From positions 24,570-88,569 of the forward strand of contig CAZOOV010000008.1 in NCBI GenBank assembly GCA_964581515.1: 64,000 bases of DNA. Direction: 5' to 3'. The notes beneath the pieces are model-generated. The model was not told the DNA's origin and searched no databases. It saw only the letters and a program-made list of their open reading frames with translations. Below are positions 9,969 through 29,960 of this stretch, piece after piece; the first letter of the stretch is position 1, and each line of letters starts with the position of its first letter. This DNA is from an uncultured Methanosarcinales archaeon (GTDB lineage Archaea > Nanobdellota > Nanobdellia > Woesearchaeales > JACJVV01). A program made the translations under genes and the position numbers.

Positions 9969-9989
9969 TTTTTATTACCTAAAATTCAT

Positions 9990-11565: not shown

Positions 11566-11620
11566 AATAAATAATGACTAAAAGAAATAATAATCTTCAG
11601 GGAAATATCTAATAGGTATT

Positions 11621-12808: not shown

Positions 12809-13013
12809 CTTATTTACCTCTAATATCCCTCTCTCTAACTATTAGTATATCCTAAGGTATACTCATATATAAATTTGATGGTTTAATCACTAAGCAAGGG
12901 CGAATACTTATTTTCAGATATTAACTATTATGTTGAGTTGTTGTATGTGTTGTTATACATTTACTAACTTATCGTACTAAATTTAATAAAGCTATAATGA
13001 TTTTTGAAGATTT

Positions 13014-13283
13014 ATGGTTGAAACGCTTAGTTCTGGAATAAAAAAGATTGAGATGTCTTCACATTTTGATAGGTGTACGCTTAGTGATGATGAGCTTAAA
13101 GATGGTATTGAGACATTATTTAGTATTTATGATGAATCACCTGATCCTAAACATAAGATGTCAGTAGCAGGACATGCTTATACTGGAATATTAGATCTGG
13201 CAAGAATTGGTAAATTAGATCTTGCAAAATCATATATAGAAAAATTTGAAAAAAAAATAGGTTATGATCAAATTCAAGATTGA
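13014..13283 (+). CDS. small hypothetical protein
   Basis: 89-aa ORF between ftsZ and the FKBP gene. Confidence 0.3.
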   Translation: MVETLSSGIKKIEMSSHFDRCTLSDDELKDGIETLFSIYDESPDPKHKMSVAGHAYTGILDLARIGKLDLAKSYIEKFEKKIGYDQIQD

Positions 13284-13309
13284 GTCTTAGTTAATTAGTT
13301 CTGTTTATT

Positions 13310-14041
13310 TTAGTTCTCTTTAGGAGCAGGAGTCTCTTCTTTCTTCTCAGCAGGTGCTGGGGAAGTTGTTGGCGTAGCTGTTTTCTTTTCTTCTCCTTGC
13401 TTTTTGTATTCTATCTCCTTTATCTCAGGTAAGACTTCAAGAACTTTTTTCTTAAGAACATCTGTAATATCCGGAGGCATATCGAATGCAAGCTCTACAA
13501 TTGCTTTTGTTCCTTCAATTGTTACTTTTGGTTCTTCGATCTGGAGCATTGCCCCCATTAGTGTAGATACTTTCTTGACAACGTCGTCAATCTGTTTTAT
13601 GATTTTTACTTTGTATACAACATCTTTTCCTGATAGTGGATGATTAAAATCAACTAATGTTCTTCCACCGCTGACAGTCTTAATTATACCCATCTGTTCG
13701 TCGATATTGACTTGAAGTCCAGGCATAGGGTTAATATTTGCTTTTTTGAATTTTGCTGTTGAGATGAGCTGAATCTGTTTTGGATCTTTCTTTCCAAAAG
13801 CGTCTTCTGTTGCTATCTCTACAGTGTAATCTTTTCCTACTTCTTTGTCTACAAGCTGTTTGTCTAGTCCAGGGATAGTCTGACCTTGACCTATGCATAT
13901 TGTAACAGGACCGTATTTAACACCTTCATTATGGATGCCACTATCTTTTGCAGTCTTTTCGTCAGTAGTGTCGAAGATTATCTCTTCTTCTTTTGTCAGT
14001 CCAGTATATTCAATCTCGATGAAATCATTTTTCTTAAGCAT
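13310..14041 (-). CDS. FKBP-type peptidyl-prolyl cis-trans isomerase (long archaeal SlyD-like form) with K/E/P/T-rich C-terminal tail
   Basis: FKBP motifs including VDFNHPLSGK and an IF-domain-like insert. C-terminal ~40 aa low-complexity (EEKKTATPTTSPAPAEKKEETPAPKEN). Confidence 0.8.
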   Translation of the reverse strand: MLKKNDFIEIEYTGLTKEEEIIFDTTDEKTAKDSGIHNEGVKYGPVTICIGQGQTIPGLDKQLVDKEVGKDYTVEIATEDAFGKKDPKQIQLISTAKFKKANINPMPGLQVNIDEQMGIIKTVSGGRTLVDFNHPLSGKDVVYKVKIIKQIDDVVKKVSTLMGAMLQIEEPKVTIEGTKAIVELAFDMPPDITDVLKKKVLEVLPEIKEIEYKKQGEEKKTATPTTSPAPAEKKEETPAPKEN

Positions 14042-14165
14042 TGTGATTACCTCATTATTTGATGTTTTTTTTGTTTTTTTGATATCTTTTTGATATTTTG
14101 TTGTTATTTTGCGTTATGTGTGTTGAGTCGTGGTTTGTTTATAAATGTTTTTGCAAGATGATTAA

Positions 14166-15140
14166 TTATGAACTCTCGTCTATAAATCTGTATTTATATT
14201 CTTCCCATATGGTTAGTGTGCTATAATCTGAAACAATCCCTGAGAAATTGTTCATGAACTCACGCATGAGTTCTCTGAACTCTTCTATGTTTTTAACTTC
14301 TATATCTATTTCAAGTTGCCAAGGTCCTAAGCAATTGACCATATAGATAATATTTTTCTTATTGAGGCAGTATTCAATAAGCTGTTTTTCTTTTTGTTGG
14401 TTCATATTGTTTAATGTTATCAATACTTTGAAGAATATGCCTTGAAGTTTGCTGACATCAGGCCATATCATATAATGCTCTATTATATGCGCTTTCTCGA
14501 GGTTTTTTATTCTTTTAATTATTGTGTCTGCGGATATCTTTAATTTTGTTGCAATCTCTGTCGCTCTTACTCTTGAATTTTTGGAGAGTTCTTTTAGGAT
14601 TGTTATGTCAATCTTATCTAGTTTAATATCAACTGGTTTTCCACCCCATTCAATTACTCTTTCAGTGGTTGCTTTTTTGTCAATCAGATAATCTCGGTAG
14701 AAATATTGAGCTTGTACGATTGTTGTTGTGTCGCTCTCTTTGATGAATCTCCCATATTTATTGTGAATGTCCATGATTATTTTGTGCAATTCAAACATAG
14801 ATTTGGCTTTTGGAGCATAGATTAAGGAATATTTTCCATCGCATGATGAGACCCAACTTATATTTTGATTTCTTATTAATGAGTCTATCATCTCTTTTTC
14901 TTCTTCATTAGTTATATTATGTAATTTAACATAAACTTTATGATGAGTGTATCCCAATCTTGAAGTGTTTATAATTGTTAGATAATTTCTTATTATTCCT
15001 TCTTTATGATATCTTTTGAGCCTGTAGAGGATGCTCTCTCTAGAGAGAGAAACCTTCTTTGCAATCTTTGAAAGAGGTTGTCTTGCATTTCTGTCAAGTT
15101 CATACAATATTTGTCTGTCTTTTTTGTCAAGTTTAACCAT
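14166..15140 (-). CDS. Lrp/AsnC-family transcriptional regulator with two tandem HTH-RAM units
   Basis: Two HTH segments (DKKDRQILYELDRNARQPLSKIAKKVSLSRESILYRLKR and DKIDITILKELSKNSRVRATEIATKLKISADTIIKRIKNL), each followed by an RAM-like domain. Confidence 0.6.
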   Translation of the reverse strand: MVKLDKKDRQILYELDRNARQPLSKIAKKVSLSRESILYRLKRYHKEGIIRNYLTIINTSRLGYTHHKVYVKLHNITNEEEKEMIDSLIRNQNISWVSSCDGKYSLIYAPKAKSMFELHKIIMDIHNKYGRFIKESDTTTIVQAQYFYRDYLIDKKATTERVIEWGGKPVDIKLDKIDITILKELSKNSRVRATEIATKLKISADTIIKRIKNLEKAHIIEHYMIWPDVSKLQGIFFKVLITLNNMNQQKEKQLIEYCLNKKNIIYMVNCLGPWQLEIDIEVKNIEEFRELMREFMNNFSGIVSDYSTLTIWEEYKYRFIDESS

Positions 15141-15258
15141 ATTTTTACTAATATTGCTTATTTTTAATAAATTTATCGGTTTTCATTAAAAATTCATTAA
15201 ATACTTTAATATAAATAAGAGTATTATCCTTTAATATTAACTATTGGGGTGATATAAA

Positions 15259-15837
15259 ATGGATACAACACTTGAAGAAAAAACAAAACAAAGAGAGGAA
15301 CAATATGTAGAGACAGTTATGTCATGGCAGCAAATAAGAGAGTTGATGGAGGATAGTTGGAATTGGAGGATAGAAAATGATGAGCTTAAGGGCAGATGCA
15401 ATGTAGGGGGCTATGAGGATGGGATTGAATGTGAATTGAAGTATGGGAGAGATTCACATTTCGGGCTCTATCATAAAGGTGTAGAGATTGAGATAGACAG
15501 CAAAGAGGATTATGCAGAATTCCCTTCTGAGAGTACTAGGTGGTATGGCGAGATAGTAGATAGGATTCAAGCAGAATTTACAGAAGCGTATAATAAGCCA
15601 AAGAAGAAAGATATCCCTTGGTTCCTTATAGGTATAACTGCTGCTACAATTGCATTATGTAGTGTAGCTGTCTATTCAAAGATAAATCAAAGATCTGAAC
15701 AAGATCAAAAATTAGGACAGCAACCAGCATTGACAAGGATGCTTGAGGAAGGAGATGTCATAGGATATTCTGGGAACAATTATCAGATTAGAGATAATAA
15801 TGGGAGTCCAGAATTAAGGTATCATAGATTGCAGTAA
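15259..15837 (+). CDS. hypothetical single-pass membrane protein
   Basis: 192 aa with one TM (IPWFLIGITAATIALCSVAVY). Confidence 0.45.
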   Translation: MDTTLEEKTKQREEQYVETVMSWQQIRELMEDSWNWRIENDELKGRCNVGGYEDGIECELKYGRDSHFGLYHKGVEIEIDSKEDYAEFPSESTRWYGEIVDRIQAEFTEAYNKPKKKDIPWFLIGITAATIALCSVAVYSKINQRSEQDQKLGQQPALTRMLEEGDVIGYSGNNYQIRDNNGSPELRYHRLQ

Positions 15838-15866
15838 TTCAGCTATTAGCTTGTTGTTTTATTTTT

Positions 15867-16421
15867 TTATTTTATTCTCTCATTTATTTTTTTTATTGTT
15901 GTTCTTATGGCTTCTTCTATATTAAGATTTGTTGTGTCTATTATTATATCATAATTGTTCTTGTCATATGCATCGATGCTGTAAAATTTCTTATATCTTT
16001 TTTTCTCAGAATTCATCCTTCTCTGGATCCATTCTTTCATCTCATCAATATCTTTTGCTTCTCCTTCATCCCTGCCAATACCTTCTACTATATCATTGAA
16101 TATTCGCTTTGCTCCTTCATTGATGTCACAGTCTATGAACAGTTTAATTGACTTTGGAATGAAATGCCATGAGATTCTTCCTTCTATTAGGAAATTGTCT
16201 TCTTTTTCTCCTAATTCTTTCTGATAATTGTCTATATCATTATCTGTTACTGGGTTATCTTCTGCTTGTTCTTGTCCTATTGTGACATTTACACCTTTTT
16301 TCTTAGCAATATCTCTCCACATCTGACCCATATTGTAATGTTTTAGATTGAATTCTTTGATAAGGCTTGCTGCAATAGTGCTTTTACCAGAACCAGGCAT
16401 TCCTGAGATTGTTATTATCAT
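15867..16421 (-). CDS. cmk: P-loop nucleotide kinase, archaeal cytidylate-kinase-like
   Basis: Walker A at N-terminus (MIITISGMPGSGKSTIA). Size ~180 aa typical for archaeal CMP/AMP kinases. Confidence 0.55.
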   Translation of the reverse strand: MIITISGMPGSGKSTIAASLIKEFNLKHYNMGQMWRDIAKKKGVNVTIGQEQAEDNPVTDNDIDNYQKELGEKEDNFLIEGRISWHFIPKSIKLFIDCDINEGAKRIFNDIVEGIGRDEGEAKDIDEMKEWIQRRMNSEKKRYKKFYSIDAYDKNNYDIIIDTTNLNIEEAIRTTIKKINERIK

Positions 16422-16497
16422 ATATGTATGTAAATGCTACTCATTTATATTTGTTTTTAGCTTTATTAATTACTATTTCTATTAAAATCTGATTAGT

Positions 16498-17193
16498 TTG
16501 ACCACAATCTTTTTAAAAACAGGACTTTTTGGTAAATGTATGAAATGGGGGTTCATAGTTTTACTTGTACTATTAGTCTTACCTATCTGTTTTGCAGGAA
16601 GTACTCAGTTCAAAGACTTGTATGAGATTAGTAATAAATCTATAACAAGAAATGATACTATGAGGGCTTTTGAGGCCTATAGATTCAGGTTTAATGGTGC
16701 TGAAGTAAAATTAACCATTGATACTATGACACCTGAGAAAGTTTATTTTTCTATTATCAGTAATACTTATGAGGATAAGGAATTTGCATTGGAGAAATTC
16801 AGCAAGAAGTCTTTTGATCTTGATAATGATGGGCTTGTTGATTTTACATTTGGGCTTGATGAGATCATAATGTCAAATACCAAAAGAAGAATAACTACGA
16901 TGTTTTCAACAGAAGAAGCGATGGGCATTGAGACATTTGAGCTTGATGATATCCCTATTGTTGAGGATGATACTGTTGTAGAAGAAGATGTTAAACCTAA
17001 GAATATTACTACTGAGAATCTGACAGATGATTATGAATTGCTTTTGGACCAAGAAGAAGAAGTAGAGGATGACTCTAAACCAATGTCATCAATGAGTTTT
17101 AATCTTGTTATATGGCTTATTGTATTACTTATAGTGGTAGTCATTGGAGGCGCTTTCTTTTTGTTATACAAGAAGCATCATGAAATTTTATAA
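16498..17193 (+). CDS. secreted protein with acidic region and C-terminal TM anchor
   Basis: Signal-like N-terminus (start may be internal at MKWGFIVLLVLLVL), D/E-rich middle, C-terminal TM (LVIWLIVLLIVVVIGGAFFLLYKK). Confidence 0.5.
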   Translation: MTTIFLKTGLFGKCMKWGFIVLLVLLVLPICFAGSTQFKDLYEISNKSITRNDTMRAFEAYRFRFNGAEVKLTIDTMTPEKVYFSIISNTYEDKEFALEKFSKKSFDLDNDGLVDFTFGLDEIIMSNTKRRITTMFSTEEAMGIETFELDDIPIVEDDTVVEEDVKPKNITTENLTDDYELLLDQEEEVEDDSKPMSSMSFNLVIWLIVLLIVVVIGGAFFLLYKKHHEIL

Positions 17194-17360
17194 AATTATT
17201 TTATGATATTGCGCTTTAATAATACTTTTAAACAAACTTAAACTACTCAATCCAGAAAATTTGAAATAAAGGGGGAAATATTAAAATATGGCAAACCCAC
17301 GAGAAATCTTTGATTTCTGAGGGTTTCCAATCTTATATTGATTCATATAAAGGTGATAAA

Positions 17361-19004
17361 ATGGCAAACCCACAGGTACAACCGATATTTATTTTGCCAG
17401 AAGGAACTACGAAAACTTCTGGACTTAACGCTCAAAAGGTAAACATAGAAGCAGCTAAACAAGTTGCTGATCAAGTTAGATCCACTTTAGGTCCAAAAGG
17501 AATGGACAAGATGATTGTTGATTCTTTAGGAGATGTAATTGTAACAAATGATGGTGTAACAATCTTACAGGAGATGACAATAGAGCATCCTTCTGCAAAA
17601 ATGATTGTTGAAGTTGCTAAGACCCAGGAAGATGAAGTAGGAGATGGTACAACAACAGTTGTCGTTCTAGCAGGAGAATTTCTTAAGAATTCACTGGAAC
17701 TTCTTGAAAAAGGAGTGCACCCTACAGTTATAGTGAAAGGATACAGGCTAGCATCCAATAAAGCATTAGAAATACTTAATGATGTTTCTGAACCAATCAC
17801 TCTTCAAGATAAGTCAAAACTTATCAAGATAGCACAGACAGCTATGACAGGAAAAGGTGCAGAACAATCAAAAGAAATACTTTCAGAGCTTGTCGTCAAA
17901 GCAGTACTTGATGTTGCTGAGCAGGAAAGTGATAAGATCAATGTCAATATATCAAATATCAAGATTGAGAAAAAAGTAGGCGGAAGCATTGAAGATAGTG
18001 AACTTGTTGAAGGAATCATTCTTGACAAGGAAAGAGTTCATTCTGGAATGCCTAGAGCAGTTGAAAGTGCACATATAGCACTTCTTAATACTCAATTAGA
18101 GATAAAGAACACTGAAATAGATGCAAAGATACAGATAACTGATCCTTCACAGATGCAAGCGTTCCTTGACCAGGAAGAGGCTATGATTAAGAAGATGATA
18201 GATAAAGTAATAGCATCTGGAGCAAATGTAGTATTATGTCAGAAAGGAATTGATGATCTTGCACAGCATTATCTTTCAAAAGCAGGAATATTTGCTGTAA
18301 GAAGAGTAAAGCAAGGTGATATGAAAAAACTTGCTATGGCTACAGGAGCAACAATAGTGAATAATCTTGATGATCTTTCATCTGACGATCTTGGAAAAGC
18401 AGGAAAGATTGAGGAGATAAAAGTAGGAGACGAGAGCATGACTTATGTAAGGGAATGCAAAAATCCTAAATCAGTCACATTACTTGTAAGAGGCGGAACA
18501 GAACATGTAATTGATGAAGTAAAACGTGCTGTTGATGATGCAATTGGAGATCTTAGTGCGACACTTAATGTTGGGAAAATAGTCTACGGCGCTGGTTCAA
18601 TAGAAATTGAGATGTCTATGAAATTAAAGAAGTATTCAGAAAGTTTATCTGGCAGAGAACAATTAGCTGTTGAAGCATTTGCAAAAGCAATGGAAGTAAT
18701 TCCAAGGACACTTGCAGAGAATGCTGGTCTTGATCCTATCGATATAATAGCTGCACTTAAATCAGCACATGATAAAAAAGAGATTACAATGGGTATTGAT
18801 GTATTCTCTGGAAAAATTAAAGACGCTGCAAAGATGGGTGTTATTGAACCTTTGAAGATCAAGACACAAGCTGTATCTTCAGCAGCAGAAGTTGCTACTA
18901 TGATCCTTAGGATAGATGATGTTATCTCAGGTTCAACAGGTCCACCTCCAGACATGGGTCCAGAAGGAATGCCTCCTGGTGGAATGCAGATGCCTACTAT
19001 GTAA
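17361..19004 (+). CDS. ths: thermosome subunit (group II chaperonin)
   Basis: [29 protein letters not shown]..., the ATP-binding block [14 protein letters not shown], and the GGM-like C-terminal tail. Start placed at [10 protein letters not shown], preceded by AGGTGA. Confidence 0.9.
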
Positions 19005-19013
19005 TCAAAGTAA

Positions 19014-19394
19014 ATGTCTAAGAATTTTTTTGATTCAATAAGAAGAGAATTAATTATAGCAGTAATTATTATAGTGTTGATTGTTCTGATTCTAGGTATA
19101 TTATCTTTTTTTAACCTAAATTATTATATTGAAGAGGAAATTGATAATGAAGATTCTGGTGTGATTGTTAGAACATCTGCTCCTGGGCTGATTGATCCTA
19201 ATGTAGTAATAGATATATGGGATTTTAGGACTAAAGAAGATTGTGAAGCAAATGATGGGTATTGGACTTTTGTCAATGAGAGTTATGCAGAATTCAATGT
19301 AACGGAATGGGTCTGTTTTGAATTACCAGATAATCCTTATGTGGAGATTGTGGAATATATTGATGAAGAAAATGATGAGAATAGTGAACATTGA
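19014..19394 (+). CDS. small membrane protein with acidic C-terminal half
   Basis: 126 aa, one TM then D/E-rich region. Confidence 0.4.
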   Translation: MSKNFFDSIRRELIIAVIIIVLIVLILGILSFFNLNYYIEEEIDNEDSGVIVRTSAPGLIDPNVVIDIWDFRTKEDCEANDGYWTFVNESYAEFNVTEWVCFELPDNPYVEIVEYIDEENDENSEH

Positions 19395-19407
19395 GAGAAT
19401 GAATAGC

Positions 19408-19500
19408 TTGTAAAAAGTCTGCTGGCACGGCGCTACTATAATCCCAAAATAAACATTTAGGGATTATCGCCTCATCAGGCAAAGCTGACTTTTTATCCAT
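19408..19500. other. GC-rich nested stem-loop element in intergenic region (possible small structured RNA or terminator)
   Basis: Outer arms aaaagtc/gactttt, inner hairpin tataatccc...gggattat; a TGATGA (C-box-like) on minus strand. The terminal motif I could find is CAGA, not the canonical CUGA D box. Confidence 0.3.
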
Positions 19501-19543
19501 TATTATTAGTAAACAATAAAAATATGAAGGTGATTCTTGTATT

Positions 19544-20347
19544 ATGTTATACATGATTGGGCTTGGACTGGGTAATGAGAAAGATATTAGTATCAATGCT
19601 CTTGAAGCAGTGAAGAAATGTAATAAAGTGTATTTAGAATCATATACTTCAATACTTCAGACTTCTGTTGAGAATATGGAAAAGTTTTATGGTAAGGATA
19701 TTATCATTGCAAATAGGGAATTGGTTGAAAAGAAGGCAGAAGAGACCATACTTAAGGATGCATCTGAAGGTGATACTGCATTTTTGATAATCGGTGACGT
19801 ATTTGGTGCTACTACTCATGTAGATCTTGCTCTTAGAGCGAAGAAAGCAGGTATTGAAATAAAATATTTCAATAATGCATCTATCATGAATGCGATTGGA
19901 GTCTCTGGTTTGGAACTTTATAAATTTGGGAAAACTACATCAATGGTATTCTTTGAAGATAATTGGAAGCCAACAACTGCATATGATGTTGTTGAGATGA
20001 ATAAAAAAAATGGTATGCATACTTTAGTGCTTCTTGATATCAAGACTGCTGAGTCTTCAAAAGAAGATATATTGAAAGGAAATGATAAACCGCTTCCTCC
20101 TAGATTTATGACAGTTAATGATTGTCTGAAACAGTTTATTGAAATTGAAAAAGAGAAGAAAAAAGGGTTATTTGATGAGAATACTATTGTTGTAGGATGT
20201 GCAAGAATAGGAAGTGATGATTTCATTGTTAAATCTGGAACTGTTAAAGAACTTACTTCGTTTGATTTTGGAGGACCTTTGCACTGCGTAATTGTTCCAG
20301 GAGATTTGCATTTTATGGAAGAAGAATTCTTGAATTCGTATAATTGA
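19544..20347 (+). CDS. dph5: diphthine synthase (Dph5)
   Basis: MLYMIGLGLGNEKDISINALEAV..., a tetrapyrrole-methylase-like fold typical of Dph5; 267 aa. Confidence 0.85.
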   Translation: MLYMIGLGLGNEKDISINALEAVKKCNKVYLESYTSILQTSVENMEKFYGKDIIIANRELVEKKAEETILKDASEGDTAFLIIGDVFGATTHVDLALRAKKAGIEIKYFNNASIMNAIGVSGLELYKFGKTTSMVFFEDNWKPTTAYDVVEMNKKNGMHTLVLLDIKTAESSKEDILKGNDKPLPPRFMTVNDCLKQFIEIEKEKKKGLFDENTIVVGCARIGSDDFIVKSGTVKELTSFDFGGPLHCVIVPGDLHFMEEEFLNSYN

Positions 20348-20415
20348 GTAGTGTATTACTACTTATCAGTACTAAAAGATAGAAACCTTTATAAACTCAT
20401 ATTCATTAATGTGGT

Positions 20416-20877
20416 TTGGTGGTACTTATGAGTGATATGGACAAATTAGAGTCAAATATTTATGCATCATTTAGTAGAGTTAAGTCAGATATTCTAAAGT
20501 TAAGCGGTGAAATCACAAAAATAAGCGAAGCTATGACTAAACTTGCTGAAGAACAAGGTGACATGAAAGAAAATATAGGCGAGATGGCAAAAAAAGTTGC
20601 AGTCTTCAACAGTTGTATGAGACAACTTGATAAGGTTGCAGATAAAGCAACATCTAGTCCTAAGACAAAAACAGTTGTTGTCGAAAAGATTAAAGTAAAG
20701 AAAGTAGCTGCAAAACATAAGAAGAAGACATATGTCGCTTCAAAATCAGGCAAGAAATTCCATATGCCAGAATGTATCTTTGCAAAGAACATCAAACCTA
20801 AAAGCATGGTTAAGTTCAAGAGCAAGAATGCAATGCTGAATAAAGGATACAAGCCATGTGTTTGCGTTCAGAAGTAA
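20416..20877 (+). CDS. coiled-coil protein with C-terminal Ada-like zinc-binding domain
   Basis: C-terminus FHMPECIFAKNIKPKSMVKFKSKNAMLNKGYKPCVCV matches the Ada metal-binding pattern (H-x-P-x-C ... A...GY[KR]PC.xC). Confidence 0.45.
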   Translation: MVVLMSDMDKLESNIYASFSRVKSDILKLSGEITKISEAMTKLAEEQGDMKENIGEMAKKVAVFNSCMRQLDKVADKATSSPKTKTVVVEKIKVKKVAAKHKKKTYVASKSGKKFHMPECIFAKNIKPKSMVKFKSKNAMLNKGYKPCVCVQK

Positions 20878-20928
20878 TTATTCTTTTTATTATCTTTATT
20901 TTTTTAATATTTTTTAATTTTATTTTTG

Positions 20929-22485
20929 TTAATTTATGAAGCCTTCTATAACCATCTTTTCTGCATATTTTGCAGGTTCTTTTATTGCTTCTTGTGTGAT
21001 TCTTATGTGGGATTGCATTTTAAATCCTACATCAATTAAGTCTTCTATATGACATGTTGTAGTTCCTTGTATGATACTTCTTACTTCCATTGAATTATTA
21101 AGCATAGTTTCATTAATTAGTTCTGTTGATGCTTGTGGGTCTATACTTAATTTTACTTTATATTGACTTTCAAATTCTCTACAGAAATCACGTAAATCTT
21201 GTTGCATAGTATATATTCTTTCTTTTACCTTTTCTGGTTCAAGCAAGAAATGTATTCCATATGATGCTGCTGCTCTTCTGAATCTTTTTGCTATATCAAT
21301 TTTTTTTAATTCTCCCATATATACACCAACTCTAGTTTCATATTTCTTTCTTACAAAATCTTTTTGATTAGTATAAGTTATTACTTTTTCTGGTTCTTCA
21401 CTTCTTAGTTTTGGTGGATTTTGTTCTAAATAGTAATTTAATGTTTTTTGTGGGTCTTGGACGAGTTCAGGAGTTACCAAGAGTTCTCTACAACTCATTG
21501 AAGGCATACTATAAAGGAAAGGATATAATGCGTTATCAATCACTTCATGCAGCCCTCTTGCACCCATTCTTAGATCAATTGCTTTTTGCGCTAATACACC
21601 TAATGCATCTTCTTCAAATTCTATATCAATCCCATATGCACCAAACTCCAGTTGTTTATTTTGGATGACAGGAGAATTTTTCATGCTAAGTATGCTACCC
21701 AATTGCTCAACATCTAATTCATCAAGTTCTGATATGAAACTTATCCTTCCTAAGAATTGACTGATGAAACCATAATTTTCTAAAGCTTTTTTTACAGGTA
21801 CTTTATCTGTAACTGCACCATAACCTAAACTCTTTTTTTCAGTCTGGAGTCCGTCAAATGCTCCGCTAAGAATAAAAAATATATCGCTTGTGTTTAATGT
21901 GACTTCTTCTACTTTTCGTTCTTCTCTATAATTTACATACATTTCAGTCCCTTGAAAAATTCTAAGTAATTCTTCTTGTACTGATTTTCCTGTGATATCT
22001 TTACCAAATCCATCTGATGACGCTGCAATCTTATCTATTTCATCCAAATAGACAATTCCTAATTGAGCAATAGCTGGTATCTGGTTTGCTCTATCAAATA
22101 ATTTCTGGAACATGCCTTCTGTACTTCTTCCAACATAACCTGCTTGTGTATATTGGGTAGAATCAGTGATGTAATACGGGACTTTTAGTAATTTTGTTGC
22201 AAGTTCAAGCATATAGGTCTTACCAGAACCTGTTGGACCCATGAATAAGAGAATTGGCTTTGGTAGATGGTCATTATCTATTCCCATCGCCTCTTTATAC
22301 TGTAATTTCTTGTAATGTGAACAGAGGGCTGTTGCAAGTGTAATTTTTGCTTCTTCTTGCCCTACAACAAATTGATCGAGATATAGTTTGAATTCCATGG
22401 GTCTTAAGTCAAATTCCATTAAGTTCATGAATTCTCTTGCCATGTATTTTCTATTCATTATACATGTTTTAAATATTTGTATCAA
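20929..22485 (-). CDS. ClpX/HslU-like AAA+ ATPase (no N-terminal zinc-binding domain; extra C-terminal ~150 aa)
   Basis: LYLDQFVVGQEEAKITLATALCSHYKKL, Walker A LLFMGPTGSGKTYM, Walker B LGIVYLDEIDKIAASS, and sensor GARGL match the ClpX-type unfoldase family. No ClpP or HslV gene adjacent. Confidence 0.7.
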   Translation of the reverse strand: MIQIFKTCIMNRKYMAREFMNLMEFDLRPMEFKLYLDQFVVGQEEAKITLATALCSHYKKLQYKEAMGIDNDHLPKPILLFMGPTGSGKTYMLELATKLLKVPYYITDSTQYTQAGYVGRSTEGMFQKLFDRANQIPAIAQLGIVYLDEIDKIAASSDGFGKDITGKSVQEELLRIFQGTEMYVNYREERKVEEVTLNTSDIFFILSGAFDGLQTEKKSLGYGAVTDKVPVKKALENYGFISQFLGRISFISELDELDVEQLGSILSMKNSPVIQNKQLEFGAYGIDIEFEEDALGVLAQKAIDLRMGARGLHEVIDNALYPFLYSMPSMSCRELLVTPELVQDPQKTLNYYLEQNPPKLRSEEPEKVITYTNQKDFVRKKYETRVGVYMGELKKIDIAKRFRRAAASYGIHFLLEPEKVKERIYTMQQDLRDFCREFESQYKVKLSIDPQASTELINETMLNNSMEVRSIIQGTTTCHIEDLIDVGFKMQSHIRITQEAIKEPAKYAEKMVIEGFIN

Positions 22486-22594
22486 CTAAAATATGTGTTT
22501 GAATTAGTAGTTTACTGATTATTTGATAAGATTAGAATTTAGATGTCATAAGCATTAAATTTTTAAATGGTTATTAAATTCTTGATTGTATTAT

Positions 22595-22761
22595 AGCCCC
22601 GTAGTGTAGTGGTCAATTAATGTTTATGCATTAGACCAATCATCCAGGATTTTGGAATGAGAACCTTTATTGTTTCTTATGAAAATGTCCTGGGACCTCG
22701 GTTCAAATATCAAAGTGGAGCGATGAAGCTCAAACTTTGTTTGAAAGTCCGGGCGGGGCTA
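22595..22761 (+). tRNA. intron-containing tRNA, my fold gives tRNA-Pro (anticodon UGG); at least two, probably three introns
   Basis: Acceptor stem AGCCCCG (22595-22601) pairs with CGGGGCU (22754-22760), discriminator A22761; U8 present. T-arm 5' strand CUCGG (22697-22701) and canonical T-loop UUCAAAU (22702-22708); the 3' strand CCGGG lies 40 nt away (22749-22753), implying an intron at 60/61. Anticodon stem AGGAU (22646-50) and loop UUUGGAA (22651-57), then a 29-nt insert and GUCCU (22687-91). D-arm region 22603-22645 is ~25 nt too long and did not fold for me. Confidence 0.55.
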
Positions 22762-22762
22762 T
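22747..22762 (+). repeat. attL: 16-nt gtccgggcggggctat, the 3' exon end of the tRNA
   Basis: Identical 16-mer recurs at 28974-28989; the 11-mer gggcggggcta recurs again at 29950-29960. Confidence 0.65.
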
Positions 22763-22825
22763 CTTCCTTTTTGAAAGGTTTTAGGGACAAGTTTTATATA
22801 TTGGTATTGTTTAGTTAGTTCTAAT

Positions 22826-24100
22826 TTGGTAGATTTGAAGCTGAAAAAGAAAAAAGAGAAGCAAAAAGAGCCTAAACCGATTAAAGGTATTTCTAAACAA
22901 AACTCTGATTTAATACTTCAATATTGTAGTGATATGGCTCAAGGAAAGAATGTTGCACCGACAAGTACTAAAGGTCCTAGAGCTAAAGATAGAGTTGGTT
23001 CTTTGAAAAGCAAAATGAAAAGAATGACTGAATTCATTGAAGAATTGTTTGGTGTTACTGATTTAAGAAATCTTACAGATGACTATGTTCTTGAATTGAT
23101 TAATGGTATGCGTACAGGTAAATATAGACAAGAAGATGGTAATAAATATGAGTCTGTAGATAGTTATGCAAAAACACTTGCTGCATTTTGGCATTGGTAT
23201 ATGCGTATTGAAAGGAAAAAAGATAATCATGTTCAAGATATTATGCTTGATGTTAAGAAAACAGGAGATAAAAAACCACCATGGGTTTATATGAATCAGG
23301 AAGAATTCAATAAATTTGTTAATAGATGTAAATGGGATTATAAGATATTATGCACCTTCATATATGATTCTGGTATTAGGTCACCCTGGGAATTGAAAAA
23401 TATTAAAGTTTCTGATATTACTTGGGATGAGAAAAATGAACGATATCAGTTATATATAAGAGATGAAGTATCAAAAACATTTGCTAGAAAGATTAAATTA
23501 ATGTTGTGTACTAAACTCTTAAAAGAATGGTTAGCAGAAAGAAATGGTAAGGAATTATTATTTGATTTAAATCCAGAAATAAATAATCAATATTTGAAAA
23601 GAGTTGCAGAAAGAATATGGGGAGAGAAAACAAGCAAAGGAAGAAAGAAATATAAGGATATTATAATGATGGACTTACGGCATAGTTCTGCTTGTTATTG
23701 GTTACCACGATATAAGTCTGAATCTAATTTAAAATATAGATTTGGTTGGAAAAAGTCTGATATGATACATTATTATTCAGAATTTTTAGGAATGACTGAT
23801 AATATTCAAGAAGAAGATTTACTTGTTGATGTGAGTGCAACTGAACTGCAAAATAAGTTTGAGGAAGAAAAGAATCAGAGATTACTTATGGAAGAAAATA
23901 TGCAACAGCAACAGAAAGAGTTTGAAGAATATAAAGAAGCTATGAATCCTATTTTAGAGAAACTAATGCAAGGTTTAGATGGTATGGAAATGGTTGGTAG
24001 ACAACCTAATGGTGCTGGTATATTTAGTAATGCTAAACAGAAGAATAAACCAAAGATAAGTAAGAAAGATGTTGAATTTGCTAAAGGTAGGAATAAATAA
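22826..24100 (+). CDS. int: tyrosine recombinase / integrase
   Basis: Box I-like SGIRSPWEL, HxxR-like MDLRHSSACYWL, and candidate catalytic Tyr in DMIHYYSEFLG. 64 nt from attL. Confidence 0.75.
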   Translation: MVDLKLKKKKEKQKEPKPIKGISKQNSDLILQYCSDMAQGKNVAPTSTKGPRAKDRVGSLKSKMKRMTEFIEELFGVTDLRNLTDDYVLELINGMRTGKYRQEDGNKYESVDSYAKTLAAFWHWYMRIERKKDNHVQDIMLDVKKTGDKKPPWVYMNQEEFNKFVNRCKWDYKILCTFIYDSGIRSPWELKNIKVSDITWDEKNERYQLYIRDEVSKTFARKIKLMLCTKLLKEWLAERNGKELLFDLNPEINNQYLKRVAERIWGEKTSKGRKKYKDIIMMDLRHSSACYWLPRYKSESNLKYRFGWKKSDMIHYYSEFLGMTDNIQEEDLLVDVSATELQNKFEEEKNQRLLMEENMQQQQKEFEEYKEAMNPILEKLMQGLDGMEMVGRQPNGAGIFSNAKQKNKPKISKKDVEFAKGRNK

Positions 24101-24136
24101 AAATGTTTATAGATTATAATATGCAAGAGATGTGTA

Positions 24137-25411
24137 ATGATGGATAAAAAGGGTCAAATAACTTTTTTTATAATTGTTGGAGTAATTTTCATATTATTAG
24201 TACTATTCTTTATTCTTTTCAATAATACTTCTTTTGAAGTGGACAATGTAAATAGCTTAGATACAGGTCAAATTCAATCTTATGTTACTTCTTGCATTGA
24301 AACAACAGCAGAAAAAGGAATTTATTTTATTTCATTGCAAGGTGGATATTATGAAACTTCAGTACCTTATCAACAATATGCTTTTATGGATATACCTATC
24401 TATTGGGATAGTCAGTCAAATATTCCTGATAAATATGTTATTGAACAAGAATTAATTAAGTATATCAAAGCAGAAGTAAACAACTGTCTGAATAATTTTA
24501 CTTTTTTAAAGAAACAAGGATATGATATAACAAATGGTTCTATTGTTGGTAATGCTGTTATAAATGACAATGGGATTGTATTGAACATTGAATATCCATT
24601 ACGTATAATATTTGGAGAGGAACAAGGTACAATTGATAGATTTAAAGCAACTATTGATTTTGATTTTCAGAGAATATATGGTATTGTAAATAAAATTATT
24701 ACAGAACAGATTAAGACGCCTAATGATATGCCATTAGGTTATATTTCTTATTTAGCTTTTGAAGAAAATTTTTTATTTGAGACCGTTAGTATAGAGAAAG
24801 ATGTTATACTTTTTGAATTAATATTTAATGATACTTATAATGGTCAACCTTTTATTTATGCTTTTGTAAGTAAGTATAATTGGTCAAATCTTGATTATGA
24901 TAATAGCTTATATGTTGAACCAATCCCATCATTTATCATTAATGAAAGTAGTACTTTTGAATATACAGTCAGAGCAAATGGAAGTAATGTTCAATATTCA
25001 GATTATACTGGTTTATTTGATATACATGAGAGTACAGGATTAATTATATTTAATACTGATAATGTACCTAATGGTGAACATAATATTTTGATTAAAGTAG
25101 TAGATGAAAATGGCAATGAGGGATATGCTTATATGCATTTGACCGTTGATATGCCTAATCAAAAACCAATTATTAATCCAATAGGTGATCTAACTGTAAA
25201 TGTTGCTGAAGAGTTTGTTTATACAGTTCAAGCATCAGACCCTTCAAATACATTTCTGACTTATCTTGATGATACTGGATTATTTAATATACATCCAATG
25301 ACAGGGAAAATAAAGTTTACACCTACATTAACTGGTAATTATTCAATAAAAATTACTGCTTTGAATGGAGAAGGTCATAGTTTTGAATACATGAGGTTAG
25401 AAGTAATATGA
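24137..25411 (+). CDS. element-encoded membrane-anchored protein with repeated Ig-like segments
   Basis: N-terminal TM (ITFFIIVGVIFILLVLFFILF). C-terminal half has two similar ~90-aa segments (FEYTVRANGSNVQYSDYTGLFDIHESTGLIIF and FVYTVQASDPSNTFLTYLDDTGLFNIHPMTGKIKF). Confidence 0.5.
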   Translation: MMDKKGQITFFIIVGVIFILLVLFFILFNNTSFEVDNVNSLDTGQIQSYVTSCIETTAEKGIYFISLQGGYYETSVPYQQYAFMDIPIYWDSQSNIPDKYVIEQELIKYIKAEVNNCLNNFTFLKKQGYDITNGSIVGNAVINDNGIVLNIEYPLRIIFGEEQGTIDRFKATIDFDFQRIYGIVNKIITEQIKTPNDMPLGYISYLAFEENFLFETVSIEKDVILFELIFNDTYNGQPFIYAFVSKYNWSNLDYDNSLYVEPIPSFIINESSTFEYTVRANGSNVQYSDYTGLFDIHESTGLIIFNTDNVPNGEHNILIKVVDENGNEGYAYMHLTVDMPNQKPIINPIGDLTVNVAEEFVYTVQASDPSNTFLTYLDDTGLFNIHPMTGKIKFTPTLTGNYSIKITALNGEGHSFEYMRLEVI

Positions 25412-27519
25412 GATTATCATATTTGTTGATACTGTTATTAGTTATTCCAGTAGTATTTGCACCATGTCCTCCAGGAGATAGTGGGGATAGTTGTGATTAC
25501 ACAAGTCAAGAAGATATAAATAAATTAGAAGGACAAGACCTTGTTACAGCAATTAATGAGGGTAAAATAACAGATCTTGATTTAGTGGATGATAATAGGC
25601 TTGCAGATGCTATTAGAACTGATCCTTCAATCTCAAATGATTTAGGGAATACTGACTTAGCTAGAGCAGTAAATCAAGATTTATCTCTAATGGATAATCC
25701 ATCTGTTATGGATGAGTTTGATTCAAGAGCACAATCCAATACGCATATACTAAATAATAATCCAAATATTAAGGAAAGGTGGTTTGCTGATAATGGAATA
25801 ACAGATGATGGAGCAGAGATTGAAAATTATGATGGTTCTATCGTTAGTACGAAAGGCAGTCAAGCAACTACATTTAATATTAATAATCATCCAGGAGCAA
25901 GAGTTACAAAAGATGGCAAGTTAGTATTGGTTGATGGAACAGAGATTGCTAATGCTGATGTAACTATTTTAGAAGATGGGAGTTTAAATATTGATGCTGG
26001 TAATACTGATTTGTCTGATTCTGACAGTGCAGATGTTCATGTGAATGCTGGAACTGTTCAGATAGATGATAAATTATATACCACCACAGATAGCTCTACA
26101 ATAAATGTAGCTATTAATAATGGTATAACAAAAATTACAGGTGAAAATATAATTGAATCTCAAGATGGCATAGTAACTGCTGCTTTTTCAGGTGAAATCT
26201 CACTATTTTCAGACGGACATATGGCTTTTGCTGCAAATACCGAATATAGTCAATATAGTAATGGAGAAAAATCTAAAACAGTTACTGTAAATGGTTTAAC
26301 TGAATTTTATACAAATGCAGGATGTGATGAAACAGTTAGTTGCATCCAATATGTTGATGGTAATATGAGAGTTATTGCAAAAGATGATAATAATATTGAT
26401 ATTAAGACGTTTGATGATTCAATAGAAAGATTAGTTGTTGATGGAATTAGTGATGAAAGTACAGTTGTTTTTAATGACAATGGAAATGTTGAGATGACTT
26501 TTTCTAATAATCCAGTTGTTGTTAAAGGTGAATTAACTCAACTGCAAACAGTAGTTGAAACGGATATTACTGTAAAAGAAGGAGTAGCAATCAAACAAAT
26601 ATATTCAAGTGATGGCGTAGAAGTAATCCCCATTAATCCCGATGGAGCTGATAGATTTGCTAATTCTATCTATTGGAAAAGAGTTAGTGAGGATGGAGAG
26701 TTTGTTGATTTGACTAGAGAAGAAGTGATTGAGCAATATGGTATTGACATTGTTTTTGGAGATGACATTGAAGTAAGTGAGGAAGTTCGACAAGCAGTTA
26801 TTAGTGATATTGTGAATTATTATGAAACTTTTCCTTCTCCTGATGATAAAGATGTTATAACTATTAAGATAGAAAGTAATAATGCACGAGGTTCAAGTTA
26901 TGATATACGGGATAATTCTATTAATTTAGTATTAAATGAAGATGGTTCTTTATGGGCAATAAGTGATGAAATAGGTAGTTTTGGAACAATAAGGCATGAA
27001 TTAGCTCATCTACATGAGGATCTTCGTTATCCTTCTTTGAGTAGAGCTAACATGGCGAGTCTTGGAGTGGAAGGAAGGTCTTATTTTGAAAGTGTTATAT
27101 TACAAACTCCATTTTTTCAAGAGTGGATGAATATACAAGGAATTGAATCAACTGCAGATTTAATTGCTAACCAGAATACCTTGACTACACTTAAACCATC
27201 AGATAATGAAGAGTATGGGAATGTAAGAGTTTGGAGTAATGAAGAATGTAATTCTCAAGATCCTTGTCATGGGTATATAAGACCTTATGGAACTGTTTTA
27301 ACTGAAGATTATAGTACTTATGTAGAAAGGATTACTGCTGATCCTACATTCTTTATGAGAAATAATTTAGTTGGTGATAATTCTGACCCACGTTACAGAC
27401 AAAAAATAGACCTTTTGCTTGAGCATAATTATATAACTCAATATGAATATGATGCAGTATTTTATCCTGAAAGGTATTTTACTGATGAAGAATTGCAACA
27501 ATTATTAGCTAACTCTTAA
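25408..27519 (+). CDS. element-encoded secreted protein with HExxH (zincin-like) motif
   Basis: Signal peptide (LLILLLVIPVVFAP); HELAHLHEDL at ~residue 530. Overlaps the upstream gene by 4 nt (ATGA). Confidence 0.5.
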   Translation: MRLSYLLILLLVIPVVFAPCPPGDSGDSCDYTSQEDINKLEGQDLVTAINEGKITDLDLVDDNRLADAIRTDPSISNDLGNTDLARAVNQDLSLMDNPSVMDEFDSRAQSNTHILNNNPNIKERWFADNGITDDGAEIENYDGSIVSTKGSQATTFNINNHPGARVTKDGKLVLVDGTEIANADVTILEDGSLNIDAGNTDLSDSDSADVHVNAGTVQIDDKLYTTTDSSTINVAINNGITKITGENIIESQDGIVTAAFSGEISLFSDGHMAFAANTEYSQYSNGEKSKTVTVNGLTEFYTNAGCDETVSCIQYVDGNMRVIAKDDNNIDIKTFDDSIERLVVDGISDESTVVFNDNGNVEMTFSNNPVVVKGELTQLQTVVETDITVKEGVAIKQIYSSDGVEVIPINPDGADRFANSIYWKRVSEDGEFVDLTREEVIEQYGIDIVFGDDIEVSEEVRQAVISDIVNYYETFPSPDDKDVITIKIESNNARGSSYDIRDNSINLVLNEDGSLWAISDEIGSFGTIRHELAHLHEDLRYPSLSRANMASLGVEGRSYFESVILQTPFFQEWMNIQGIESTADLIANQNTLTTLKPSDNEEYGNVRVWSNEECNSQDPCHGYIRPYGTVLTEDYSTYVERITADPTFFMRNNLVGDNSDPRYRQKIDLLLEHNYITQYEYDAVFYPERYFTDEELQQLLANS

Positions 27520-27941
27520 AACCTTTTAATTTTCTATCAGTTTCCATTTCTGGTATCCGATGGGTTGCGCCTAGAACAACCTCGCGGAACCGCCTTTTAA
27601 ATTTAGTAGTGAGGGAATACTTGGACTGAACTGCTAATTTAAATGGTTAGGTGAGCATAAATAATAGCGCAACTTATCGGAAATGGAAACGTACTGCTGC
27701 CACCACTATTACTTCTATCTGTTTCCAGAGTGGACAACGAAGGGTTTGCGCCTTAAATATTTTTGAAAATGCGTTAGCTATTTTCTTTTTAGAATTTTTT
27801 GATTAGTTACCTGTTTTGTTTTACACCATTTTACTATGTTTTACCCCTTATTGTGTAGTTTTGAGTACTGTTGTTACCGTCGAGGTTTAACACACTTTGT
27901 ACAAGTAGGGTATTTATTTATATAGAGTAAGTTATAACACT
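27520..27941. promoter_or_regulatory. structured non-coding region of the element, candidate replication origin and rep promoter
   Basis: GC-richer than flanks. Inverted repeat cagtttccatttctgg ... cggaaatggaaacg ~130 nt apart, a third copy ctgtttccagagtgg, and direct repeat gggtt(t)gcgcct. Lies directly upstream of rep. Confidence 0.35.
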
Positions 27942-28940
27942 ATGGACATCATGAAATACGATGTCAATCAAAAAAGTTTGTTGGAATTCCCTTATTCACT
28001 TGAAAATAAAGCAACATCTGGAACAAATAATAGAGAAAAAGAAGTAGAAGTAATTATTAATGGACTAAAAGAATATCTTGGTGTTGATGAATCATTGGAT
28101 CATGAGATATGGAAGTATATTAATCGATTAAGGTTGTGCTGTAAACAGTTTTTAACGCTTACATGTGATAATGGTTGTGGTAAGTATAAAGTTGGAATAG
28201 GTTGTAATTTAGCAGTATGTCCTGTGTGTGGTAAGAAACAGTACAAAAGGTTCATATCAAAATATAAGGATAACTTTAGAAGTTGGATGAATCCAAAACA
28301 TTTGACTTTAACATTAAAGAATTTAGATACAATAACAATAGAAGATTATAAAACGCTTTCTTATTGGTGGAAAAGGTTACGGCAAGAACTTAAAAGACAT
28401 GGTGACAAACATAACGTTAAGTATGAGTTTACTTATGGTATATGGGCATTTCATAATCATAACTATGGTAGAGGTTATCATTTACATTTACATATTGTCT
28501 TTGATGGTACAAGAATACCACAGCGTCTAATAAGTAGATTGTGGGAAAGGATTACTAAAGGTTCTAAAATTGTAGAAATACATGAGATAATAACAACTAA
28601 ACAGTTGAGTAAAGCAATTCAGTATGTTGGTAATTATGTAGTTAAGGGTGGTGGTAGTGAAGCTACTGTTCATACACTACTTGAAATGTTCTTTGCTAGT
28701 CGTAATGTGAGAAAATACAATACCTTTGGTAAGTTAAGGGTTGAGATGAAACGAGCTAAATTAACCTCTATCTGTCCTTTCTGTGGTGCTGTAATGGTAT
28801 TTGATGGTATTTTTATGAAATTTGAATTGGAGTTTACAAGAAAGCCATTCTTCAAGCCAATATTCAAACTGCGTCCAAAAACAGAAACACAGTTAAATAT
28901 CAACCACTTTACTTCAACTAATAATGCTGATAAAGCATAA
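27942..28940 (+). CDS. rep: rolling-circle replication initiator (HUH endonuclease Rep)
   Basis: Motif I FLTLT, CxxC...CxxC zinc finger, motif II HLHLHIVF (HUH), motif III YVGNYVVKG (Y-x3-Y...K), all in the canonical order. Confidence 0.7.
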   Translation: MDIMKYDVNQKSLLEFPYSLENKATSGTNNREKEVEVIINGLKEYLGVDESLDHEIWKYINRLRLCCKQFLTLTCDNGCGKYKVGIGCNLAVCPVCGKKQYKRFISKYKDNFRSWMNPKHLTLTLKNLDTITIEDYKTLSYWWKRLRQELKRHGDKHNVKYEFTYGIWAFHNHNYGRGYHLHLHIVFDGTRIPQRLISRLWERITKGSKIVEIHEIITTKQLSKAIQYVGNYVVKGGGSEATVHTLLEMFFASRNVRKYNTFGKLRVEMKRAKLTSICPFCGAVMVFDGIFMKFELEFTRKPFFKPIFKLRPKTETQLNINHFTSTNNADKA

Positions 28941-28973
28941 TCATGTTTCTTAATTCTTTCATAATGGTCGAGT

Positions 28974-28989
28974 GTCCGGGCGGGGCTAT
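28974..28989 (+). repeat. attR of element 1 (also attL of remnant islet): gtccgggcggggctat
   Basis: Exact 16/16 match to the tRNA 3' end at 22747-22762. Confidence 0.65.
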
Positions 28990-29081
28990 AGAGTATTTTG
29001 CGACCTTGAAGGGTTTTATGCCCTTTTTGGTTTTTTCTAAAAAACTTGTATTTTATAAGATATATATAAACATGGGCTGGC

Positions 29082-29852
29082 TTATCTTTTTCTTTTAATA
29101 ACTTTAGAAAACAACAATATTATGTTACGAACTAAAATAACTATAATATAGGAGTATATTGTATTAACTATAAAGAAGATTAACAATAAAGAAGGACTAA
29201 ATACCTGGAAGTCTCCAAAACCTCCTGTCAATAACTTGTATGGAAAGGCACTAGGGAAAAAAAGAAAGATTCCTAACCCACTATATAATTTCATAAGTTC
29301 ATATAGAAACGATCTGAAAGGTAATAAATAACCAAGAATTGGTGAAAAAACCCATATGACAAAAAATAAATTTAAAATAATAACTGAAATTATTGTACCT
29401 TTAGACAAATCTAATTTAATATATCTTTGGATAGCATAAATTATCGAACCAATAATTAAACCACCAATACCTAGAATCAACAGCAAGGGAAGGATTTGAT
29501 ATTTGATTACCATGGGAAGATTTGTGCTTAAGGTAAAACCTCGTGAACGAAACCAATGTAGGGTAAGGATAATGCATTCAAAAAAACCAATAATCAGATA
29601 AATTAAAAAAGGAGTTAGGCAAATACTTGTTATCTTAAAATATGTTGAAAAAGATCTGTAAGCTTTTAAAATATATTTGTAGTTAACTATTATTAAGATA
29701 ACACATAATATTACAATTCCTAAAGCTTCTGCAAAAAATTGTGTGCTTTGACTAATAATTGTAGTGAAATAATAGTAGACAATAAATAAAAATGAGATAA
29801 TTAAGATAAGTGAAATACTGGTACGAACAATAACTCCCTTTTTTTCTTCCAT
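29082..29852 (-). CDS. polytopic membrane protein (islet cargo)
   Basis: 256 aa, ~8 hydrophobic helices, basic C-terminus. Lies between the second and third att copies. Confidence 0.5.
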   Translation of the reverse strand: MEEKKGVIVRTSISLILIISFLFIVYYYFTTIISQSTQFFAEALGIVILCVILIIVNYKYILKAYRSFSTYFKITSICLTPFLIYLIIGFFECIILTLHWFRSRGFTLSTNLPMVIKYQILPLLLILGIGGLIIGSIIYAIQRYIKLDLSKGTIISVIILNLFFVIWVFSPILGYLLPFRSFLYELMKLYSGLGIFLFFPSAFPYKLLTGGFGDFQVFSPSLLLIFFIVNTIYSYIIVILVRNIILLFSKVIKRKR

Positions 29853-29949
29853 ATGAATTAATTTATCTTGATAATTTAAATCTTTTATCCTTTTTTAGAA
29901 ATATAGCAGTTATATTATATCCCTTAAACCTTTCAAAAACCCATTAACA

Positions 29950-29960
29950 GGGCGGGGCTA
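29950..29960 (+). repeat. third partial att copy gggcggggcta
   Basis: 11/11 identical to the tRNA 3' end; delimits a ~1-kb tandem remnant islet (28990-29960). Confidence 0.5.

Follow-up and report, generated by a model that had tools for sequence, protein, structure and literature searches.

The question raised by this locus is what lies between two copies of the last nucleotides of a tRNA gene in an archaeal genome. The sequence analysed, 64,000 nucleotides (nt) of contig CAZOOV010000008.1 (here called the window), holds between these copies a unit of 6,227 bp including one copy of the repeat core, with a G+C content of 30.8% (33.4% for the window). The unit carries genes for a tyrosine integrase (Int), two cargo proteins and a rolling-circle replication initiator (Rep). 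All four open reading frames are present on the plus strand where the initial annotation had placed them. The unit is quite likely an integrated rolling-circle plasmid-like element of a marine DPANN-type archaeon, consisting of two separable modules placed around swappable cargo. The initial annotation had proposed a new family of plasmids or proviruses, which is overstated, since the combination of an integrase and a rolling-circle endonuclease is already on record in NitAQ6f-E2, an integrated cryptic element from a thaumarchaeon (PMC6563490). The element is thus of a familiar kind, with a conventional mechanism, and belongs to an undescribed lineage; neither this DPANN integrase family nor the element was encountered in the literature searched, where few mobile elements of Pacearchaeota/Woesearchaeota-type DPANN archaea were found at all. 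To our knowledge, these archaea are not yet genetically manipulable. With its integrase, its Rep, a target of 13 nt and a candidate origin of 422 nt, this compact and apparently complete unit is a possible vector backbone.

Repeats, tRNA target and a sister element

The 16-mer GTCCGGGCGGGGCTAT occurs in the 64-kb window in two exact copies, both on the plus strand, at 22747-22762 (the left attachment site, attL) and at 28974-28989 (the right attachment site, attR). None of 100 shuffled sequences gave a match, even with two mismatches tolerated, and the exact repeat reported by the initial annotation is therewith confirmed. The left copy lies at the end of a gene for tRNA-Gln(UUG), the integration target (22595-22761, plus strand). 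Its exons (22595-22617, 22641-22655, 22687-22708, and 22749-22761) are separated by three introns, at 22618-22640 (23 nt, in the D-loop), 22656-22686 (31 nt, position 37/38) and 22709-22748 (40 nt, in the T-loop, position 60/61). Neither ARAGORN nor Rfam reported any tRNA in the whole 64 kb, and ARAGORN calls tRNA-Gln(ttg) only once the D-loop and T-loop introns are deleted. The gene was recovered by enumerating deletions in the D-arm and T-arm, leaving the anticodon-loop intron to ARAGORN, and the exon borders were fixed by alignment to the intron-less tRNA-Gln of a second contig, L001. The spliced tRNA is 73 nt long, identical to that of L001 at 73 of 73 positions, and folds into a normal cloverleaf; in the minimum-energy fold of the pre-tRNA, the acceptor stem is retained and every intron forms a separate hairpin.

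The end of the T-loop intron abuts the attachment (att) core, which is the 3' exon of the tRNA and spans the 3' strand of the T-stem, the 3' strand of the acceptor stem, and the discriminator. The earlier view that the core coincides with the exon directly past the T-arm intron therefore stands, but the length has to be corrected from 16 to 13 nt: the sequence truly shared is CCGGGCGGGGCTA (22749-22761 in attL, 28976-28988 in attR), and the extra GT and T of the window are absent from the sister element in L001. Directly past the tRNA end, the left arm of the element (22763-22825, plus strand) begins with an oligo-T tract (CCTTTTTG) and contains a TATA-like sequence, TTTATATA, at 22793-22800. 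This arm is conserved in L001. The oligo-T tract may serve as a replacement terminator for the tRNA gene and the TATA-like box as the int promoter. Just two copies of TTTATATA are present in the element, this one upstream of int, 25 nt from its start codon, and another (27917-27924) upstream of rep, 17 nt from its ATG; these positions would fit archaeal TATA boxes with short leaders.

The same tRNA-Gln(UUG) gene has three introns in the window and none in L001, a relative whose flanks are 70% identical. An enrichment of introns in targeted tRNAs was considered and rejected, as canonical introns are no commoner there (15/46) than in other tRNAs (11/35). It is also worth noticing that multi-intron tRNA genes escape standard tRNA finders, and that integration sites escape along with them.

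The borders of the element were established by comparison with its relatives. A close relative of Rep was found only on two contigs of the Joint Genome Institute (JGI), L001 (7,210 bp) and L002. Host genes in L001 (1-1277) match window positions 19580-20914 with 70% identity, and the intron-less tRNA-Gln (1323-1395) matches the spliced exons. The core and int follow (L001 1379-2719, window 22745-24085, 82% identity). The next segment, L001 2791-4407, has no counterpart in the window and encodes a 538-amino-acid membrane protein that replaces the two cargo genes; the non-coding region and rep are then again shared (L001 4404-5869, window 27526-28988, 94.5% identity). The L001 element is bounded by CCGGGCGGGGCTA at 1383-1395 and 5857-5869, and past 5869 the similarity to the window ceases. 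The similarity of the two elements thus opens at 22745 and closes at 28988, i.e., at the repeats, while the cargo differs. This comparison in a relative supports the earlier proposal that the repeats bound a unit behaving as mobile. The elements resemble each other more than their hosts do: at the protein level, Rep is 98% and Int 80% identical between the two contigs, compared with 73% and 55% for the two proteins encoded in the flank.

The integrase and its family

The int gene (22826-24100, plus strand) starts 64 nt after the core end and encodes an intact protein of 424 amino acids, as does its ortholog in L001. About 1985 homologs of Int were found. In an alignment of 27 family members, R185, K217, Y282xxR285, W308, and Y317 are wholly or almost wholly conserved, Y282-D-x-R285 being nearly invariant as a motif, and Int aligns weakly to the catalytic domain of XerH. 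Judged by this conserved catalytic set, Int is a tyrosine recombinase, as the initial annotation had it. The order R..YxxR..Y is the signature of pNOB8-type integrases (PMC8371274). With this signature and an intact gene outside the att sites, the enzyme is assigned to type II (pNOB8 type), which agrees with the integration style first proposed. An SSV-type (type I) integrase was considered and rejected, as int is whole rather than split and the repeats lie outside the gene.

Archaeal type II integrase elements at tRNA genes are well known (PMC8371274). The element of the window resembles them in that int stays whole after integration and adjoins attL, that the 3' part of a tRNA gene is targeted and rebuilt, and that the R..YxxR..Y signature is present (PMC8371274). 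It differs from them in the distribution of its Int family, confined almost entirely to assemblies of Pacearchaeota, Woesearchaeota, and Nanoarchaeota, in a core of just 13-14 nt, and in being a tiny element with an HUH Rep and not a conjugative plasmid. The family matches at least 300 places in species-representative genomes, and several genomes contain more than a single copy. Among the 71 family genes with at least 300 nt of upstream sequence, to which the count was limited, a tRNA on the same strand ends within 300 nt upstream of int in 44 (62%), and the targeted tRNAs are mostly those for Asp, Glu, Gly, Ser, and Gln. Repeats of 13-14 nt at the same tRNA positions bound Int-family elements of 3.3-5.3 kb in three contigs (L042, L056, and L060), with no Rep and with different cargo that includes reverse-transcriptase-like genes, as judged from translation. 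By these comparisons, the window element conforms to a plan found across the Int family, and it opens a view on a large group of integrases that use the terminal 13-14 nt of numerous tRNAs as their target.

Some observations were made on individual family members. The reverse-transcriptase-like genes lie at 13022-14488 in L042, where a YVDD motif is visible, and at 11121-12347 in L060. The elements of these two contigs (4.8 and 5.3 kb) also encode paired proteins of about 217 amino acids, between 13-14-nt tRNA-end repeats and with no Rep. In contigs L005/L006, an identical 13-nt tRNA-Gln core (9921-9933, minus strand) lies upstream of a 48%-identical integrase in the opposite orientation, which suggests either that int occupies the distal end there or that the attachment site of the circular form (attP) is inverted.

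The rolling-circle initiator and its candidate origin

The second module of the element begins with the non-coding region and ends with rep (27942-28940, plus strand), which encodes a protein of 332 amino acids. A word-index protein search with Rep gave one relative and wrongly suggested an orphan protein; this possibility was rejected after an exhaustive search had returned 1,801 relatives (E <= 0.001), of which the nearest, identical sequences aside, is 39% identical. An N-terminal cysteine-rich zinc domain (C66, C75, C79, C88, C93, and C96) is followed by motif I, HLTLTLKN at residues 120-127 (family pattern PK-x-LTLT-x-KN, residues 118-127), the HUH motif with H182 and H184, invariant in 60 of 60 relatives, and motif III, Y228-x3-Y232 within YxxKYxxK. 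Among the same relatives, Y228 is found in 43 (E in 13) and Y232 in 54; K235 and a C-terminal C278xxC281 are further conserved positions. The order T122-L123-T124, H182/H184, Y228/Y232 is that of HUH proteins. Of the three motifs initially pointed out, the HUH and YxxxY motifs are thus upheld, but the FLTLT taken for the first one (residues 70-74) is located in the zinc domain, and the true motif I is HLTLTLKN. Domain matches in the 60 relatives are to Rep_1 in 56 (counted at E <= 0.01, the best being 2.6e-21), to the IS91 zinc domain in 53 and to REP_ORF2-G2P in 47.

The structural prediction is in line with this assignment. The model of Rep built with an alignment reached a predicted local distance difference test (pLDDT) score of 81.7, and the one built without an alignment was useless (pLDDT 37). 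The best matches of the former in the PDB are HUH proteins, namely SIRV1 ORF119, Helraiser, parvovirus NS1, and the Reps of geminiviruses, AAV, and circoviruses. Sequence searches of the PDB with Rep returned zinc-ribbon noise only, and tblastn revealed weak similarity (23-28%) to the Rep proteins of bacterial plasmids of 2-2.6 kb. From the motifs together with the model, Rep is classified as an HUH protein, a divergent zinc-ribbon initiator of the Rep_1 type. It shares with Rep_1 (pC194/pUB110) initiators and phiX174 protein A the order of motif I, HUH and YxxKYxxK, with Y or E in first place, and differs from Rep_1 initiators by the additional N-terminal IS91-like zinc domain and the C-terminal CxxC. 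The alternation of Y and E four residues before the catalytic tyrosine fits the phiX174 protein A/pC194 RepA group, and the Rep of plasmid pC194 has Glu at the position equivalent to 228.

The zinc domain raises another possibility, that Rep is a rolling-circle transposase of the IS91/Helitron type, moving by one-ended transposition with the integrase as a passenger. In these transposases, too, an N-terminal zinc domain precedes an HUH domain with two tyrosines; Zn_Tnp_IS91 is the profile matched by the zinc domain in the 53 relatives mentioned above, and a weak NCBIfam match to IS91 transposase covers Rep residues 49-192 (23.5 bits against a threshold of 125). The catalytic half, however, matches Rep_1 in 56 of 60 relatives and Y2_Tnp (PF04986) in 1 of 60, position 228 is Y in some relatives and E in others, and Rep itself has neither a Y2_Tnp match nor a helicase domain. 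IS91 has no flanking direct repeats, and its insertion is integrase-independent. Unlike IS91, the window element is present as a single copy in 64 kb and is bounded by 13-16-nt repeats derived from the tRNA, with its own integrase adjoining the duplicated tRNA end, as in dozens of Rep-less members of the Int family. A transposase is therefore highly improbable, and Rep is best taken as a replication initiator.

An initiator like SNJ1 RepA was considered as well, and rejected: in an hhalign comparison the zinc finger alone aligns (44 columns, probability 73%), not the full length. This also sets the element apart from NitAQ6f-E2, whose Rep is described as SNJ1 RepA-like and which belongs to another archaeal phylum; in a comparison made by description only, the two have in common a tyrosine integrase with a rolling-circle initiator, short att sites, and no viral hallmark genes (PMC6563490).

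The Int and Rep families co-occur in three further contigs (L004, L036, and L058), where the boundaries of the elements could not be delimited. In L004, the stretch 6856-18178 contains the closest non-orthologous integrase (51% identical), a Rep_1 protein within 3 kb of it, and then CTD10, MC6/MC7, and DUF2326 genes. The nearest Rep relative (39%) is located in contig L094, in a 13.6-kb stretch (7331-20930) bounded by the 16-nt repeat TGCCCCGGCCGGGACT, the reverse complement of a tRNA-like 3' end; this stretch also holds a distant tyrosine recombinase of 424 amino acids, membrane proteins, and a MoxR/DUF58 pair.

The region between the cargo and rep (27520-27941, plus strand) is a candidate replication origin. 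It comprises 422 nt, close to the initial estimate of about 420, and the structure predicted for it at that stage was confirmed, as it folds better than 99 of 100 shuffled sequences (z = -2.64). In L001 and L002 it is matched with about 97% identity, the similarity beginning directly past the cargo end. A long imperfect hairpin of about 150 nt is formed by 27540-27690, and a two-part motif, GTTTCCA...TTGCGC, is present in three copies, two direct (27540 and 27721, plus strand) and one inverted (27690, minus strand); of all occurrences of the half-motifs in the window, 3 of 6 and 3 of 8 lie in this region. No Rfam match was obtained in it, even at E <= 1, and a scan for bacterial promoters, inapplicable to archaea, performed no better than on shuffled sequences. 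We infer that the region contains the origin and, with its TATA-like box, the rep promoter.

A mechanism can be proposed on this basis. The type II integrase would recombine attP of the circular element with the 3'-terminal 13 nt of tRNA-Gln(UUG). Since the element brings its own copy of these 13 nt, the tRNA would be rebuilt at attL, with the oligo-T tract supplied by the element behind it, and the second copy of the core would stay at attR. After excision, the circle would be arranged as non-coding region, rep, 112 nt with attP, int, and cargo, with every gene in the same orientation. Rep, a zinc-ribbon HUH protein that has a pair of tyrosines like phiX174 protein A, is expected to nick one strand in the 422-nt region, and this nick would prime rolling-circle replication.

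Cargo, mobility and the neighbouring stretch

Between the modules are two genes that overlap by 4 nt. The first (24137-25411, plus strand) encodes a protein of 424 amino acids with immunoglobulin (Ig)-like domains in its C-terminal half (Pfam He_PIG, 29.3 bits, above the cut-off of 24); its N-terminus, MMDKKGQ and a hydrophobic stretch, resembles an archaeal pilin-type (class III) signal peptide and may be one. The second (25408-27519, plus strand) encodes a secreted protein of 703 amino acids with a signal peptide. Only eight homologs of it were found, conserved in the N-terminal part of about 370 amino acids and variable in the C-terminal one. The overlapping genes for secreted or membrane proteins are thus as the initial annotation described them, but the HExxH motif which it stressed (HELAH) falls in the part not conserved among homologs. 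An overlapping pair of this kind (427 and 972 amino acids) recurs in four marine contigs of 6.6-10 kb, L097-L100, without int or rep, the partner of the first gene being 48% identical. The pair is located at 5169-9367 in L097, and L098 contains two adjacent paralogous pairs (222-4420 and 5029-8284); it is found also in L099 and L100. A role of the cargo in defence was rejected, as PADLOC gave no match. By these comparisons, the cargo is a swappable two-gene cassette for surface proteins, present also elsewhere in related archaea, and such cargo is suggestive for organisms living attached to other cells.

Exported cargo next to a rolling-circle Rep would also be expected of the provirus of a very small temperate virus, in which the exported proteins would form the virion surface, and Rep and Int would serve replication and lysogeny. 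Pleomorphic archaeal viruses bud with few structural proteins, and the size of 6.2 kb is near that of the smallest of them. In the element, too, the non-replicative genes encode exported proteins exclusively, and the best matches of the Rep model among viral predicted structures include microvirus Reps and an HRPV-1 protein. Pleolipoviruses (HRPV-1 and SNJ2) likewise have small circular genomes and a rolling-circle initiator. For SNJ2 the integration site is a tRNA gene, and excision with circularisation rebuilds a rep-int operon (PMC13107129), which may be compared with the 112 nt between rep and int in the proposed circle; the Rep-Arvir of SNJ2 is, however, related to Rep_trans and not to HUH proteins (PMC13107129). 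The gene content speaks for a plasmid. PHROG gave no match for either cargo protein, nor homologs of pleolipoviral structural proteins (spike and internal membrane protein) or of the nucleoside triphosphatase (NTPase) among the genes of the element, which has no gene for a small membrane protein or an NTPase. In the sister element, both cargo genes are replaced by one unrelated protein, and the cargo pair exists apart from int and rep in the four marine contigs, twice in one of them. Scans of IMG/VR with Rep, with the Int alignment and with the attL pattern were all negative. A provirus therefore appears unlikely. Its more specific form is more doubtful still: a new minimal (6.2 kb) family of temperate viruses of Pacearchaeota/Woesearchaeota-type DPANN, in which the cargo would be interchangeable virion or host-attachment proteins and the T-loop intron at the core would reflect a conflict between host tRNA and integrase.

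Several results weigh against the plasmid-like element preferred here. The Pfam scores of both key proteins are below the cut-offs: Int scores 23.8 bits with Phage_integrase (PF00589; cut-off 27.1), its L001 ortholog and many homologs bearing a precomputed match to this family, and Rep scores 21.3 bits with Rep_1 (PF01446; cut-off 33.2). The sequence CTTGATA, the classic pC194/phiX174 nick site and a feature of the comparison with Rep_1 initiators, is missing from the non-coding region, where ACTTGG alone is found in the hairpin loop; any placing of the nick site is for this reason a guess. A small virus with structural proteins unlike any known could also produce the pattern described above. 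The empty site, which had been suggested as a check, was sought in relatives by exact look-up of both flank proteins and Rep, and occupied sites only were obtained. The element occupies the same place in all long contigs whose flank proteins are identical (contig counts 7 to 9), and two short contigs, L089 and L090, begin inside the same sequence. No circular junction was found either. Scans of metagenome_contigs with Rep peptides and with an attL/attP DNA pattern missed even the window's own sequence and were uninformative. Finally, a short contig from another sample, L102, carries an int variant truncated beyond residue 321, a little past the catalytic tyrosine: its positions 1-2172 are 100% identical to window 21617-23788, and 2173-2582 are 410 bp of unrelated, AT-rich, degenerate repeats of about 45 nt. 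The contig reflects an insertion or rearrangement, or else a chimeric assembly, and some copies of the element in the population may be decaying.

Part of these data would also be explained if the element were a fixed, immobile genomic island, integrated long ago and inherited vertically, with int and rep kept for other reasons or not yet decayed. Every contig of the strain, from several samples, holds it at the same place, circular or empty forms were not seen, and int is truncated in L102. The neighbourhood points the same way. Past attR, the stretch 28990-29960 is closed by CAGGGCGGGGCTA (29948-29960), an att-like sequence at a distance of 960 bp from attR that matches the core at 12 of 13 positions and was absent from the initial annotation; the matches thus number three, where 0.01 would be expected. 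The left end of the stretch, TTTTGCGACC at 28995, resembles the int-proximal arms in L004 and L005, the contigs of the two closest int relatives, and its only gene (29082-29852, minus strand) encodes a multi-pass membrane protein of 256 amino acids. The stretch is thus probably what is left of a second, tandemly integrated element, in which case the host flank proper may begin at 29961, and such a decayed neighbour would show that elements get stranded here.

The state of the first element is different. Both of its repeats are perfect, and int and rep are full length and under purifying selection. Between the window and L001, rep shows 51 synonymous and 9 non-synonymous differences, with a ratio of non-synonymous to synonymous substitution rates (dN/dS) of 0.036, i.e., strong purifying selection, and dS of 0.32; for int, dN/dS is 0.16 and dS is 0.85. 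With 94.5% identity in the rep module against 70% in the host flanks, transfer of this module must postdate the split of the hosts. Taken with the swap of the cargo, the gap in dS between rep and int indicates that the element is a mosaic and that module exchange is ongoing. A fixed island is on this evidence improbable, and the plasmid-like element is real and probably still functional, its current mobility being deduced from comparison only, as the searches yielded no empty site and no circular form.

Two further genes outside the element deserve mention. A protein of about 310-325 amino acids with two helix-turn-helix (HTH) domains of the HTH_AsnC/HTH_24 type is encoded at 14166-15140 in the window, 4147-5073 in L004, 7829-8785 in L005, and 1169-2137 in L097, in these four unrelated contigs within roughly 1-8 kb of an element or a cargo cassette; it may simply be a common DPANN gene. 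A gene for a ClpX-like AAA+ ATPase (20929-22485, minus strand) lies in the window between a conserved gene for a 150-amino-acid protein and the tRNA, and is missing from the matching interval of L001.

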